A DNA stretch of 64,000 nucleotides from Patescibacteria group bacterium (GTDB taxonomy: Bacteria > Patescibacteriota > Microgenomatia > UBA10105 > UBA927): the NCBI GenBank assembly GCA_035510735.1, contig DATKGN010000002.1, forward strand, positions 125,118-189,117. Reading direction: 5' to 3'. Made by a program: the position numbers and the translations under genes. Position 1 is the stretch's first letter. Each line of letters begins with the position of its first letter. Under the pieces are notes generated by a model. That model saw only the letters and a program-made list of their open reading frames with translations, was not told the DNA's origin and searched no databases. Below are positions 1 to 57,228 of this stretch, one piece after another.

Positions 1-389
1 CCCATCCTTACATTTATAAATGACAGATCGAGACGGTTTTAAATTTAAGGGTAGTTGAGTAATCCCAGAAAGGGAGACGAGCCTTCTTAACTCACTGAAA
101 TATTTTTTTTCATATTGAGTTAGCTTCAATATAAAAATACGTTTTTCCCTTTTTAGCCTGCTTTTTTTACCCATTTTAACGAGAATAAAAACTCATTTAT
201 TGTGAATATATTAAAACTGAACTGTTAAATTAGCAATAAATACTGCAAAGTCACTTTTTTTTGAATTTATGACGTTATTATGCCACAAAAGTCCCACTGT
301 TCCTATATGAAATATAATAGCGAGTTAAGTTCGAACTAAAATGCAGATTAGCCCTAATTTATGCCCTAAAGTGGTAAAATGCGGGTACT

Positions 390-52846: not shown

Positions 52847-54307
52847 TTAGTACGCCTGGGCAAATATCCACCGGTGTGTAGCCGGTTTTCCACAGTAAAC
52901 ACACTTCCCTTGTTCTTCTTTCGCATGAAGTGGTAAGCAACGCGTTGTCGCCTTCGTTTCCTTCTTAATCGCATCTTCACACGCGGCATCTTCACACCAA
53001 AACGCCCGGATGAATCCCCGATCCGTGGCCATAATATTTTTGAATTCCTGATAATTTTGCGCGTCACGCGTATTCTCATCAAGGAACTTCTTGGCTTTGG
53101 CGAAAAGGTTCGTCTGGATATCTTTGAGAATTTTCTCAACGGTCACAAGCATATTTTCCCGCTTCACGGTGATCTTTTCTCCGGTATCCCGGCGTGCAAT
53201 CGTCACACTCCGGTCATCGAATTCTTTTTGCCCGATCTCAAACCGGACCGGCACGCCCTTCACTTCCCATTCATTAAACCTTCGGCCGACGCTTGTCTCA
53301 GTCCGGTCGTCGAGTTTACTCCTTACCCCTCCATTATTGAGCGCTTCTTTTATCTCGCCGCAATACGCTGACAATAATGCCGAATCGTTCTCTTTTCTCA
53401 TGATCGGCATGAGAACAACTTGGATTGGAGCAATTTTAGGTGGCAGCACGAGACCACTGTCATCGCCGTGGACAAGGAATAATCCCCCTAAACTCCGGGT
53501 GGAAAGTCCCCACGACGTTTGCCAGGCAAATTCCATTTTGCCCTCACGGCTTTGGAACTGGATATCAAAGACTTTGGAAAAATTTTGCCCGAGATTATGT
53601 GACGTCCCTGCCTGGAGCGCTTTCCCATCCGGCATAAGCGCTTCGATTGCAAACGTTGCCTTGGCGCCCGCAAACTTTTCCGATTCGCTTTTCCGTCCTA
53701 ACACACAGGGAATTGCGTAATAATCTTCATACACCTGCCGGTACCAATCCAGTGCCTTCATGACGATATCGACGGCCTCCCGCTCCGTCTCGTGAACCGT
53801 ATGCCCCTCCTGCCAAAGAAATTCAGTCGTCCTCAAGAACAAATACGTGCGCTTCTCCCACCGAACCACATTGTTCCATTGATTGATGAGCATCGGGAGG
53901 TCGCGCCAGCTATGAATCCACTTTTTATACATTTCATACATGATGGTTTCGCTCGTTGGCCGGACCACAAGAGGATCCTTAAGCGTTTCACCGCCGCCGA
54001 TCGTCACAATCGCAAGCTCCGGTGAAAACCCCTTGACGTGCTCTTTTTCCTTTTCGAGTAACGAATACGGGATAAATAAAGGAAAATATGCATTCTCAAC
54101 ACCCGCCGGCCGGATCATCCCGTTAAATATCTCCTGCACTTTTTCCCAAAGCGCATACCCGTATGGACGGATCACCATTGTGCCTTTGACGGGTCCGTAA
54201 TCGGCAAGTGTCGCTTTGAGAATCACATCGGTATACCAATCCGACAGGTTTTCACTTTTCTTCTTCAATTCCTTTTTATCAAATTGTTTTGCCATATATT
54301 CCTCCAC
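52847..54307 (-). CDS. proS: prolyl-tRNA synthetase, archaeal/eukaryal-type
   Basis: 486 aa class II core with a C-terminal Zn-binding domain (CVYCGKPATHRW) and no INS editing domain. Confidence 0.9.
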   Translation of the reverse strand: MEEYMAKQFDKKELKKKSENLSDWYTDVILKATLADYGPVKGTMVIRPYGYALWEKVQEIFNGMIRPAGVENAYFPLFIPYSLLEKEKEHVKGFSPELAIVTIGGGETLKDPLVVRPTSETIMYEMYKKWIHSWRDLPMLINQWNNVVRWEKRTYLFLRTTEFLWQEGHTVHETEREAVDIVMKALDWYRQVYEDYYAIPCVLGRKSESEKFAGAKATFAIEALMPDGKALQAGTSHNLGQNFSKVFDIQFQSREGKMEFAWQTSWGLSTRSLGGLFLVHGDDSGLVLPPKIAPIQVVLMPIMRKENDSALLSAYCGEIKEALNNGGVRSKLDDRTETSVGRRFNEWEVKGVPVRFEIGQKEFDDRSVTIARRDTGEKITVKRENMLVTVEKILKDIQTNLFAKAKKFLDENTRDAQNYQEFKNIMATDRGFIRAFWCEDAACEDAIKKETKATTRCLPLHAKEEQGKCVYCGKPATHRWIFAQAY

Positions 54308-54338
54308 AAAAAAACCGTTCCTCCATAAGGACGAACGG
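54308..54338 (-). terminator. intrinsic terminator (expression platform of the T-box leader)
   Basis: 10-bp GC-rich stem (one mismatch), 4-nt loop, a 7-U tract, 3 nt before the SD/ATG of proS. Confidence 0.6.
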
Positions 54339-54525
54339 CTGTTCGTGGTACCACCTTAATTTAGGGTTTAGGGATTAGAGTTTAGAATTTAGTTATCCTA
54401 AACTCTAATGCTCTACACTCTAAGCTCTCTTATTTACAGCTATTTCGGGCTTATCCGTCCCCGTTCTTAGCGGGACCGCTCGCTATGCTCGGAACATAGC
54501 GTTCCCTCTAAAGGATCGCGTTGCT
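54308..54525 (-). promoter_or_regulatory. probable T-box riboswitch leader of proS
   Basis: Read on the minus strand: a TTGACA-17-TAGAGT promoter (54530-54558), a ~215-nt structured leader, the T-box motif AAUUAAGGUGGUACCACGAAC (at 54341-54362), and a terminator CCGUUCGUCC-UUAU-GGAGGAACGG followed by UUUUUUU (54308-54338); ACGAAC upstream can pair with GUUCGU of the terminator 5' arm (antiterminator). Confidence 0.6.
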
Positions 54526-54580
54526 CTCTACTCTACGGGTTTTCCATCCTGTTGTCAAGAATACAGCGATCATCGTTTCT

Positions 54581-55429
54581 TCAATTTCCATGCCCCTTAC
54601 CAAATCCGCTACCATACCCATTATTTCCGTATCCGTTGCTGTTTCCGTTGTTATTCCCGTTCCAATAATTATTCTGATGGCCCCCCGGCGTCGAAGTGGG
54701 TGTCGGCGAATTGGTCGTCTGAAGCGAGGACTCTTGAAAGGCCGGAGCAGGAGAAGGTGAGGGTGTCGGTGTAAATGTCGGTTGAGGTGTGGGCGCGGGT
54801 GTCGGCGTTACAGTATTTTGCTGTTCTGAATTTGCAGGTTGATACGTATTAAGCAGTTGAACATCATGAATGATGGTGGTGATTTGATTTTGCGTGGTAT
54901 CTATTTGATGTATTACCTCGACAACCTGCGTCACCTGGGTTACATGATTCACAATAATCACTTCCCGATGAACGACAGATGGTGCTGTATTAATGGATCC
55001 CGATGAAACACTTGCGCCGTTATATTTGTTGAATATCTGTTTTTGTTGTTCAAGCTGACTGGACGCATTTTGAAGCGCCGTTACATACTGAATAGTCATC
55101 TGATCCCGTGACGGACCGGGAGGTGCTTGTGCGATAGCCAGTTTTGCCGCCTCCGCCTGCTCTGTAAAATACGCGAGACCATCCGGCGATGCGCTGTTGT
55201 TAAGAAGCGTCGTCGCTTCAGAAAATCGTTGATTGGTGAATGCTATCTGCAATTCTCCTTTCGCCTGACTCGTCGGCGCGAGCGCTAAAACCGTATTTTC
55301 CATGGCGATCTTCACACCGTACAACCGGTTTCCGGGAACATCGTTCCATGAAGCAACCGCAAGTCCGCTCGGAATTAAAAATAGGAGCAACAATATCCAA
55401 ATCGTCGTATCAATCCAGGAACTCCGCAT
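54581..55429 (-). CDS. secreted/anchored low-complexity protein (TP-rich and G/N-rich C-terminus)
   Basis: N-terminal hydrophobic anchor, Q/T-rich middle, PTPAPTPQPTFTPTP and GNNNGNSNGYG tails. Confidence 0.5.
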   Translation of the reverse strand: MRSSWIDTTIWILLLLFLIPSGLAVASWNDVPGNRLYGVKIAMENTVLALAPTSQAKGELQIAFTNQRFSEATTLLNNSASPDGLAYFTEQAEAAKLAIAQAPPGPSRDQMTIQYVTALQNASSQLEQQKQIFNKYNGASVSSGSINTAPSVVHREVIIVNHVTQVTQVVEVIHQIDTTQNQITTIIHDVQLLNTYQPANSEQQNTVTPTPAPTPQPTFTPTPSPSPAPAFQESSLQTTNSPTPTSTPGGHQNNYWNGNNNGNSNGYGNNGYGSGFGKGHGN

Positions 55430-55463: not shown

Positions 55464-56588
55464 TCAACCACCCTGGGCCAACCTGAGAATATCGTGTATT
55501 GAAATAAGAACGACCAGAGCCAAGAGTATGAGCATCCCAATCTGATGGGTCGAACGCTCAAACGCGGGGGCGATTTTCCGCCCTAATATTTTTTCAAGAA
55601 ATACAAATAGCACACGGCCTCCATCAAGCGCGGGAATCGGAAGAACGTTTAACACCGCCAAATTTAATGACAAAAGACTCATAAACTCCAGAACCGCGCG
55701 GAAACCGAACTTAACCGCCTGACCGGTTACTTGAGCTATCCCGATCGGTCCTGCTACATCTGCGCCCACCGGCTTTAACTGTGCCACCTTCACGATAAGA
55801 CCCCAGATACCGGTAAACATATCACCCGCCCGCGCCACGTTTTGTTTTACTGCGACCCACGGCGCGCGCGATAACGGATACGTCTTAAACTCCAAGTCCG
55901 AAACTGCAACACCCATCGGCCCCTCCCCTGCCGGAAACGTTTTACGCGGAACCAACGAGACCGGAAATGTCGAACTGTTCCTCACGATAGTAAAAGTTAT
56001 AGACTCGCCTTCATGTGCGTGGGTAAACGTCACTAAATCACTGGGCACAATGACGCTCTTTGTTTCACCACTTACACCTAAAGGCGAGTACGTTACGCGT
56101 GTGATGATATCGTTTTGCTTAATGCCGGCGGCGGCGGCCGGGCTTCCCGCGACAACACGTTCTATATGGACCTGACCAGTGGTTTCATAAACGCCTTGCG
56201 TCAAAAGATATGTCGTAATGCCAACGGCCAATAGAAAATTCATGGTCACACCAGCAAGGAGTATCGCGACGCGTTCCGTTTTACTCCGTGCCCAGAAATA
56301 TTGAGAAAGTGTCTGTTTGCTCGACCCTTTGCCCGCCGAAGCCTTGGCGGAGGGCGGGTCATCATCTTCTCCGGAGAGCTTCACAAACCCGCCGATCGGA
56401 AGCCAATTAATGGAGTATATTGTTTTCCCTATCTTTTTCCCCCAAATCCGGGGCGGCAATCCGAACCCGAATTCCTCAACGTGGACCCCTATGAGTCGCG
56501 CAACCGTATAATGGCCAAGCTCATGAACGAATACGAGGATACTGAGAATAATGAAAAATACGACAATGGTGATAATAGTGGTTATCAT
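55464..56588 (-). CDS. rseP: RIP metalloprotease RseP (site-2 protease)
   Basis: HELGHY zinc motif in TM1, PDZ domain, LDGG motif; start trimmed to MITTII. Confidence 0.85.
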   Translation of the reverse strand: MITTIITIVVFFIILSILVFVHELGHYTVARLIGVHVEEFGFGLPPRIWGKKIGKTIYSINWLPIGGFVKLSGEDDDPPSAKASAGKGSSKQTLSQYFWARSKTERVAILLAGVTMNFLLAVGITTYLLTQGVYETTGQVHIERVVAGSPAAAAGIKQNDIITRVTYSPLGVSGETKSVIVPSDLVTFTHAHEGESITFTIVRNSSTFPVSLVPRKTFPAGEGPMGVAVSDLEFKTYPLSRAPWVAVKQNVARAGDMFTGIWGLIVKVAQLKPVGADVAGPIGIAQVTGQAVKFGFRAVLEFMSLLSLNLAVLNVLPIPALDGGRVLFVFLEKILGRKIAPAFERSTHQIGMLILLALVVLISIHDILRLAQGG

Positions 56589-56664
56589 AAAAACAATATA
56601 ATGACCTGATGAAGCTATTATCCAATGATTCGGAGGTAGAAGTAAATAGGGATTAACTAAACTC

Positions 56665-57228
56665 TCACACCTGGAGAAGTTCTGCTTCTTTCTTTGCGCC
56701 GATTGCGTCAATTTCAGCAATCATCTCGTCCGTCATCTCCTGAACAAGTTTATCACCGTGCTCCTGTTGATCCTCTGAAATGGTTTTTTCATCGGCCTCT
56801 TTCTTCAGGTTTTTCATCGCCTCATGCCGTATCTGCCGTATCATGATGCGCCCGCCTTCAAGTTTGGCTTTTGCTAATTTCGTATATTCGAGGCGCCGTT
56901 CCTCCGATAATGGCGGAAGTGAAATCCGGATGATCTCTTTATCAATAACCGGGGTTAGGCCGCTACTTCCGGCTAAGATGCCCTTTTCAATTTCCGCTAG
57001 TTGTGATGGATCGTATGGTGATATCACAATCGTTTTGGCATCCATTGTCGAAATGGTCGCCATCTCCATGAGCCTCAAGTGCTGGCTCCCGCCATAGGAC
57101 GCAATCATAATATTTTCAACAAGTGCGGGAGTGGCGCGACCGGAACGAATCGTACTTAAATCCTGATTCGTGACCTCGAGGGCTTTTTTCATGTGGTCAC
57201 GCGTTCTTTGAAGTATTGTGTCAACCAT
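56665..57228 (-). CDS. frr: ribosome recycling factor
   Basis: 187 aa, typical RRF sequence. Confidence 0.9.
   Translation of the reverse strand: MVDTILQRTRDHMKKALEVTNQDLSTIRSGRATPALVENIMIASYGGSQHLRLMEMATISTMDAKTIVISPYDPSQLAEIEKGILAGSSGLTPVIDKEIIRISLPPLSEERRLEYTKLAKAKLEGGRIMIRQIRHEAMKNLKKEADEKTISEDQQEHGDKLVQEMTDEMIAEIDAIGAKKEAELLQV

Follow-up and report, generated by a model that had tools for sequence, protein, structure and literature searches.

Canonical class I T-box riboswitches (Rfam family RF00230), such as the Bacillus subtilis tyrS leader and the proline T-boxes of the Firmicutes, contain Stem I, Stem II, the IIA/B element, Stem III, the T-box sequence and an antiterminator/terminator pair in this order; the feature definitions used here were taken from PMC7583486, PMC7778990 and PMC11297988. 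We describe a leader with the same order of elements, located on the minus strand of a 64-kb stretch of DNA from a Patescibacteria-group bacterium (hereafter referred to as the window), directly upstream of proS, which encodes a prolyl-tRNA synthetase (ProRS). We conclude, with a probability of roughly 0.85, that this leader is a compact proline-specific T-box riboswitch, most likely controlling proS by transcription attenuation. This reading is carried by the sequence elements of the switch and their mutual exclusivity, by homology to T-boxes, by covariation of every helix and by an invariant CCN-purine motif in the loop of Stem I. In common with canonical class I leaders, the window leader has a 7-nt UGGNACC bulge, an exclusive terminator with a U run, an OFF state as default, and a specifier that fits the regulated aminoacyl-tRNA synthetase and is followed by a purine. 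On the other hand, its Stem I has nothing above the specifier and holds the codon in a terminal instead of an internal loop; Stem II, in the window as in its family, is a 5-6-bp hairpin without an internal S-turn loop; and in the family helix A2 closes with A-U or G-C rather than with G.U. The window specifier is CCG, whereas CCU is preferred among the proline T-boxes in TBDB.

Departures from the canonical architecture have been described elsewhere. Actinobacterial ileS T-boxes with an ultrashort or intermediate Stem I were reportedly presented by Sherwood, Grundy and Henkin in 2015. Structures exist for those of Mycobacterium tuberculosis and Nocardia farcinica, which are listed as class II in TBDB. 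Like these leaders, the window leader has a truncated Stem I without an elbow platform and keeps Stem II and IIA, with a possible IIB; in the actinobacterial ileS T-boxes, Stem II and the IIA/B pseudoknot are required for tRNA binding (PMC7583486, PMC11297988). Unlike the window leader, however, which has a terminator with a run of seven U (U7) and a Shine-Dalgarno (SD) sequence outside the hairpin, the ileS leaders are translational, act by SD sequestration and have no terminator. They also belong to another phylum and concern Ile and an AUC codon, as opposed to Pro and CCG; an S-turn with a string of five purines is part of their Stem II, where the window has a plain hairpin with a purine-rich loop; and the specifier hairpin of the window, in contrast to theirs, sits in a three-way junction. 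The glyQS T-boxes of Bacillus and Geobacillus resemble the window leader in being compact and transcriptional and in having lost part of the standard architecture, but the loss is the opposite one, glyQS lacking Stem II and IIA/B while keeping the platform and a long Stem I. Leaders with an ultrashort Stem I are known among translational actinobacterial ileS T-boxes and not among terminator-coupled ones.

The predicted regulatory switch and its homologues

Promoter and leader occupy the 285-nt gap between a gene for a DUF5667 protein (54581-55429) and proS (Table 1; all leader features are read on the minus strand). In the leader, AAGGUGGUACCACG matches the T-box consensus at 12 of 14 positions, with the bulge flanked by helices A1 and A2, and GGTGGTACCNCG occurs only once in the window. 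An earlier reading of the locus, made from the sequence only, had pointed to a T-box sequence with this degree of match, which is indeed present, and to a classic antiterminator/terminator switch, which we recover with ACGAA/UUCGU as helix A2, its 3' strand lying inside the 5' arm of the terminator. The terminator overlaps the 3' strands of both A2 and A1 and thus excludes the antiterminator. On energetic grounds OFF is the default state, since the terminator folds with -15.0 kcal/mol (-20.1 kcal/mol for the segment; z = -3.8) as against -4.1 kcal/mol for the antiterminator (54357-54327) alone. A simple terminator scan missed this terminator owing to its internal mismatch.

For comparison, proS loci were collected from one genome per species, giving 80 loci, the closest of which belong to Candidatus Gottesmanbacteria (Microgenomates group); homologous loci from relatives are designated by L-numbers. 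In Gottesmanbacteria and other Microgenomates, 27 T-box leaders homologous to that of the window were found, all located ahead of proS or of a tRNA_bind-proS operon. The motif RGGTGGTACC is present upstream of proS in 25 of them, and the leaders of L016 and L050 were added by the covariance model R1 described below. Together with the window, these make up the 28 leaders referred to throughout. Double changes are found at every A1 and A2 pair, and the antiterminator pairing, whose conservation in orthologous leaders the sequence-only reading had named as a check, is both conserved and covarying in the 27 homologues. In 23 of the 27, five or more consecutive U follow a hairpin. In five leaders (L005, L010, L011, L024, L036), the bulge, with its palindromic GGUACC, can pair with a GGUACC or GGUGCC further downstream that runs straight into U6-7; in this alternative OFF state (-13.6 to -23.7 kcal/mol) the acceptor-end site would be sequestered while A2 stays folded.

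In a search of 501 nt (54200-54700), the Rfam T-box model RF00230 matches the window leader with 35.9 bits (E=1.9e-6). The alignment runs from end to end (model positions 1-219), with the Stem I base, Stem II, IIA, Stem III and the antiterminator in canonical order and with 84 Stem I model positions replaced by 10 nt. RF00230 was the only significant match in 54200-54700 in E-value mode, and a gathering-mode search of the whole window matched no family. The covariance-model search suggested by the sequence-only reading therefore returned a statistically significant hit, albeit one below the gathering score. The T-box was likewise the sole significant Rfam family in seven of nine relatives tested, with 35-48 bits, all below gathering.

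An alignment of nine minimal relatives (122-126 nt) was made with MAFFT, leaving the window out, and was used to build covariance model R1, which is thus independent of the window. For the window, R1 gives 53.2 bits (E=8e-10) at 54326-54507(-), its only match in the 64 kb, and it recovers the other leaders too. On the same, unfitted alignment, RNAalifold predicted Stem I, Stem II, IIA, A1 and A2, with compensatory changes at 11 pairs. In the model-fitted alignment, 96.7% of the cells are paired and double changes occur at 24 of 24 pairs; none of 500 shuffles reached these values, and slid controls were at most 52.5% paired. Wherever Stem III is long, this alignment puts IIA in the wrong place, so its IIA columns were not relied on and the 28 leaders were parsed by hand (curated parse). 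In the curated parse P0, Stem I, Stem II and A2 are each represented by 14-16 distinct helices that are 99-100% paired, a result matched by none of 2000 shuffles.

Metagenome leaders sharing TAAGGTGGTACCNCG give a different picture. Among the matches listed, nine of the 12 tested had an Rfam score of 96-140 bits, as compared to 36 bits for the window leader with the same discriminator motif, and none of the 80 matches listed, which comprised canonical T-boxes only, exceeded 37 bits on R1. Since these leaders fit the Rfam model and not R1, the family of the window leader is a distinct structural subclass and not merely a set of weak T-boxes.

Stem I, the probable specifier codon and the modules up to Stem III

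CCN followed by a purine is found in the terminal loop of Stem I in 28 of 28 leaders of the curated parse. The codon is CCG in 20 leaders (for L022 assigned by alignment with CCGAA loops), CCC in seven and CCU in one, the third position alone being variable; the loop context differs among four subgroups, and codon positions 1 and 2 are constant. CCG is also the commonest Pro codon in the long open reading frames (ORFs) of the window (46%). The sequence-only reading had not found the specifier by eye because the codon sits in the terminal loop of an ultrashort hairpin; the Stem I loop with a CCN codon that it proposed to look for is present, as CCG followed by A. In the window, CCG is assigned as the probable specifier by analogy, from the R1 alignment and from conservation between the window and L001. 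Carried on a 6-bp stem, the window loop UUCCGAG follows the Y-U-NNN-R-N pattern of a tRNA anticodon loop, and in the minimum free energy (MFE) fold the specifier loop shrinks to a triloop of exactly CCG.

The basal helix P0 is represented in the family by 14 distinct helices, all fully paired (equalled by 0 of 2000 shuffles), and is included in the MFE fold of 54522-54477. Next to P0, the GA after CGC faces the GA before GCG, so that tandem G.A pairs are possible, and there is no 3-nt bulge. Besides the accessory hairpin of the window (Table 1), extra hairpins are seen in other members, 5' in L036 and 3' in L010, L015, L019, L026 and L080. A second subtype, that of L051, L052, L057 and L059 (Shapirobacteria/Microgenomates), is even smaller (114-122 nt in three of the four). 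Its K-turn is canonical, CC-NNN-GA...GA-GG, its 4-bp Stem I carries the loop NNUCCCG, and its Stem II is constructed in another way; a terminator is not evident in L052 and L057.

Stem II comprises 16 distinct helices in the curated parse of the family, 99% paired, and is independently predicted by RNAalifold. A 3-bp Stem IIB is possible in the window between the loop AGC (54451-54449) and GCU (54440-54438). Covariation of IIB is seen in L014, L017 and L041 only; in the main group the IIB pseudoknot has no more than 2-4 complementary bases and its covariation is not convincing.

Stem III of the window folds with -15.8 kcal/mol (z = -6.6), and 0 of 200 shuffles are as stable. The perfect 12-bp helix noted earlier in this position is real, its full extent being 15 bp. 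In the T-box literature consulted, Stem III is described as indispensable. It is missing between IIA/B and helix A1 in seven relatives or more (L002, L005, L008, L009, L012, L020, L027 and others), and in relatives without it the whole core measures 122-126 nt. Compared to L001, whose ProS is 96% identical, the window leader has an identical discriminator and terminator and differs at few positions in the upstream modules, whereas the Stem III regions (54445-54360 in the window, 1020-1105 in L001) are wholly different in sequence, both forming hairpins. TAGAG repeats abound in the window Stem III region, after which come two tandem CCCTAAA units (54373-54360).

Table 1. Features of the proS leader and gene in the window, in order of transcription.
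Feature	Position	Strand	Sequence and remarks
-35 hexamer	54558-54553	-	TTGACA; with -10, 10/12 consensus match; 17-nt spacer
-10 hexamer	54535-54530	-	TAGAGT; 10/12 promoter match together with -35
P0 basal helix, 5' strand	54520-54518	-	CGC; closes the Stem I domain, pairs with GCG
Accessory hairpin	54514-54505	-	CCUUUAGAGG; between P0 and specifier hairpin, making the Stem I domain a three-way junction
Ultrashort Stem I	54500-54482	-	GCUAUG-UUCCGAG-CAUAGC; 6 bp with 7-nt loop, 19-nt hairpin; aligned as Stem I by R1
Specifier codon (probable)	54492-54490	-	CCG; in Stem I terminal loop, followed by purine A54489
P0 basal helix, 3' strand	54479-54477	-	GCG; GA (54481-54480) just before
Stem II	54476-54457	-	(G)UCCCG-CUAAGAA-CGGGG(A C); short hairpin, conserved purine-rich loop CYAANAA
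Stem IIA	54457-54446	-	CGG-AUAAGC-CCG; aligned to IIA of RF00230 by cmscan, also predicted by RNAalifold
Linker	54445-54424	-	Conserved AGC and purine-rich stretch AAAUAAGAGAG, 5' of Stem III; AAUGAGAAG or similar in relatives
Stem III	54409-54374	-	15-bp hairpin, loop AACUAA; contains 12-bp stem ATTAGAGTTTAG/CTAAACTCTAAT; purine-rich flanks
T-box sequence	54361-54344	-	AAUUAAGGUGGUACCACG; 12/14 positions of 14-nt consensus AGGGUGGNACCGCG
Helix A1	54357-54354 with 54330-54327	-	AAGG/CCUU; covaries across 28 leaders
Bulge	54353-54347	-	UGGUACC, 7 nt; invariant in all homologues; UGGU (54353-54350) is the predicted pairing site of tRNA A73-C-C-A
Helix A2	within 54346-54331	-	ACGAA/UUCGU; fully paired throughout the family, with 15 distinct helices
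Intrinsic terminator	54338-54315	-	CCGUUCGUCC-UUAU-GGAGGAACGG; 10-position stem, 9 pairs and one G-G mismatch
U7 run	54314-54308	-	Directly 3' of terminator hairpin, uninterrupted
Shine-Dalgarno sequence	54305-54301	-	GGAGG; downstream of and outside the terminator hairpin
proS start codon	54295-54293	-	ATG; N-terminus MAKQFDKKEL agrees with homologues
proS	52847-54295	-	Archaeal/eukaryote-like prolyl-tRNA synthetase, 482 aa; TIGR00408, 601.7 bits

Proposed mechanism and competing explanations

Transcription would initiate at the sigma70-like promoter, TTGACA-17-TAGAGT, which had already been noted in the sequence-only reading and was found again here. With a start site probably near 54523, the leader would measure about 228 nt up to the ATG (54523-54296), so that the earlier estimate of some 215 nt holds for the presence of a leader and needs correction for its length. 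Of the 28 leaders, 22 are preceded at a distance of 4-22 nt by a promoter-like sequence of the form TTGACN-16..18-TAnnnT with at least 9 of 12 matches. The 5' domain, composed of P0, the ultrashort Stem I, the short Stem II and IIA/B, would then display CCG, and tRNA-Pro would be bound through anticodon-codon pairing. If this tRNA is uncharged, its 3' end, A73-C-C-A, could pair with UGGU of the bulge and stabilize the weak antiterminator (A1 and A2, -4 kcal/mol), allowing RNA polymerase to read into proS. With a charged tRNA, or with none, the terminator with U7, being the more stable structure, would form and transcription would stop 12 nt before the start codon. We infer tRNA binding, sensing of the charge state and termination as output from these features; Stem II and IIA/B may compensate for the missing elbow platform. 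The U7 run, earlier placed 3 nt before the start codon, in fact directly adjoins an in-frame GUG at 54307, and the ATG begins 12 nt after it. As the SD sequence of this ATG lies outside the hairpin, the output in the window is most simply transcription termination.

Several observations weigh against a transcriptional proline T-box. The Rfam score of 35.9 bits falls far short of the gathering score (93), as some 84 Stem I model positions are missing. The distal, elbow-binding part of Stem I (S-turn, AG bulge/C-loop, double T-loop platform) is absent in the window, and transcriptional T-boxes generally require it (PMC7583486); nor does the base of Stem I in the window show a clear K-turn. The A2 pair next to the bulge is A54346-U54331 and not the G.U wobble described as a steric sensor of the aminoacyl group (PMC7583486); across the family this pair covaries, being A-U in 13 cases, G-C in 14 and C-G in two, and never G.U in that orientation. 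The usual Stem I hairpin in most relatives is GUUCCG-NNNNCCGAN-CGGAAC, from which that of the window differs in both sequence and position. The window subtype is common only to L001 and to L204 and shows almost no covariation of its own; as L204 is identical to the window and L201-L203 have no T-box, it is represented by the window and L001 only. The ProRS of L201-L203 is 81-83% identical to that of the window (the closest relative, at 85%, was left out of this comparison), and the lack of a T-box leader in such near relatives indicates that the leader is dispensable. With ARAGORN the window yielded no tRNA gene, and 60 related loci yielded one tRNA-Gln and no tRNA-Pro.

The same hairpin could also act on translation. 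In a T-box with translational or dual output, the hairpin at 54338-54315 would mainly sequester the ribosome-binding site, as in the actinobacterial leaders with an ultrashort Stem I, and it is true that the known T-boxes of this kind are translational (PMC7583486). In many relatives the hairpin contains the SD sequence in its 3' arm and the AUG comes straight after the U run, as in L002 (GGGAGGGAUUUUUUUAUG), a layout that suggests dual control there; the U run is interrupted in L013 and L026 (UUUUAUUAUG), and the window itself retains a GGAGG in the 3' arm (54323-54319) together with the in-frame GUG. However, this GGAGG is at a poor spacing of 11 nt from the GUG, the ATG that matches the homologues has its own GGAGG outside the hairpin, and an uninterrupted U7 directly after the hairpin is the signature of an intrinsic terminator, likewise present in the 23 homologues counted above. 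We therefore regard a translational or dual output in the window as unlikely. Considerably less probable is a decaying or constitutive T-box relic whose remodelled Stem I no longer binds tRNA-Pro, leaving only a leaky terminator or attenuator. Such decay would agree with a Stem I in the window and L001 that is off the family consensus and essentially without covariation of its own, with the loss in the window of the tRNA_bind gene that usually follows the leader, with the extra ~145 nt after the leader in L001 and with the patchy presence of T-boxes among close relatives. Yet the window and L001 both keep the loop UUCCGAG, Stem II, IIA, the bulge, A1, A2 and the terminator, while the interior of Stem III has been fully replaced, which argues for purifying selection on the functional modules. 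Moreover, a U.G to U-A change in Stem II retains pairing, and the loop, on a hairpin that folds stably, still shows CCG followed by A.

We give hardly any credence to an explanation without a tRNA sensor, be it a protein-dependent attenuator (e.g. PyrR-like) or a promoter region with an unrelated hairpin and terminator. It could draw on a weak match of the Rfam PyrR family RF00515 at 54306-54444 (29.1 bits, E=0.046) and on several miRNA-precursor models that match the long Stem III hairpin, but it would leave the invariant UGGUACC bulge, the CCN loop and a covarying five-helix architecture unexplained. The RF00515 match is well below the gathering score of 54, its alignment is carried by the generic hairpin of Stem III and by the terminator, and the gene that follows is proS rather than a pyr gene. 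The miRNA-precursor matches are hairpin artefacts, present on both strands.

A tentative miniature class and its genomic setting

In the full-text literature searched, no paper on T-boxes in the candidate phyla radiation (CPR), Patescibacteria or Microgenomates was found, which is not proof of novelty. We tentatively put forward, at odds clearly short of even, that these leaders are a previously unrecognised miniature T-box class native to Microgenomates that works by intrinsic termination without contacting the tRNA elbow. Its proposed traits would be a core of ~115-125 nt, a 4-6-bp hairpin with the codon in its terminal loop, a plain-hairpin Stem II, an optional Stem III and a Watson-Crick pair instead of the G.U sensor pair. 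If real, such a class would contradict the view that co-transcriptional T-boxes need a long Stem I for fast tRNA capture, and it would gain in interest if the platform-less miniature architecture really works co-transcriptionally. The combination of an ultrashort Stem I with an intrinsic terminator offers a natural test of the need for an elbow platform in kinetic, transcription-coupled T-boxes, and the relatives without Stem III, together with the missing G.U pair, test structural models of aminoacyl sensing. A core of ~120 nt ranks these leaders among the smallest tRNA-sensing modules, which makes them attractive for structural work and engineering. As judged from sequence, they point to an aminoacyl-tRNA synthetase under feedback control in organisms whose genomes are very reduced. 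The curated Rfam threshold (93) misses this whole T-box clade, and riboswitch censuses of candidate-phyla genomes probably undercount.

At 22 loci the leader precedes a small gene encoding a PF01588 tRNA-binding domain, which in turn precedes proS (e.g. L002, 2655-2990). The PF01588 proteins of the relatives have 109-111 aa and are Trbp111/CsaA-like. Proteins of this type bind the tRNA elbow. The elbow is also the contact normally made by the Stem I platform that the window leader lacks. Speculatively, the co-transcribed protein of most relatives might provide this contact in trans. The leader stands directly before proS in the window, L001, L005, L050-L052 and L057. The tRNA_bind gene was sought in the window and in L001 and is absent from both, having been lost in these two. 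In L001 about 145 extra nt (1160-1313) separate the GGAGG/ATG of the leader from the ATG of proS, with no similarity to the tRNA_bind gene. The distribution of the leader is patchy, some tRNA_bind-proS operons also lacking it. Directly downstream of proS, L202 (2337-2939) and L203 (3478-4092), both without a T-box, carry a gene for an IS200-like Y1 transposase.

The ProS of the window, which is identical in sequence to NCBI HUD19010.1 ('Patescibacteria group bacterium'), contains the domains PF00587, PF03129 and PF09180 (ProRS-C_1); the archaeal type earlier ascribed to it is borne out by the last of these and by TIGR00408 (602 bits). The genome had likewise been described as Patescibacteria-like, in agreement with nearest relatives that are metagenome-assembled genomes of Gottesmanbacteria, within the CPR. 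Upstream of the leader, the DUF5667 protein has an Asn/Gly-rich low-complexity C-terminus and is preceded by an RseP-type site-2 protease (55464-56720), both encoded on the minus strand. The synteny RseP - (DUF5667) - proS is also found in L201, L203 and L204. Within the window, 35 of the 41 long ORFs lie on the minus strand, and the GC skew is negative throughout.

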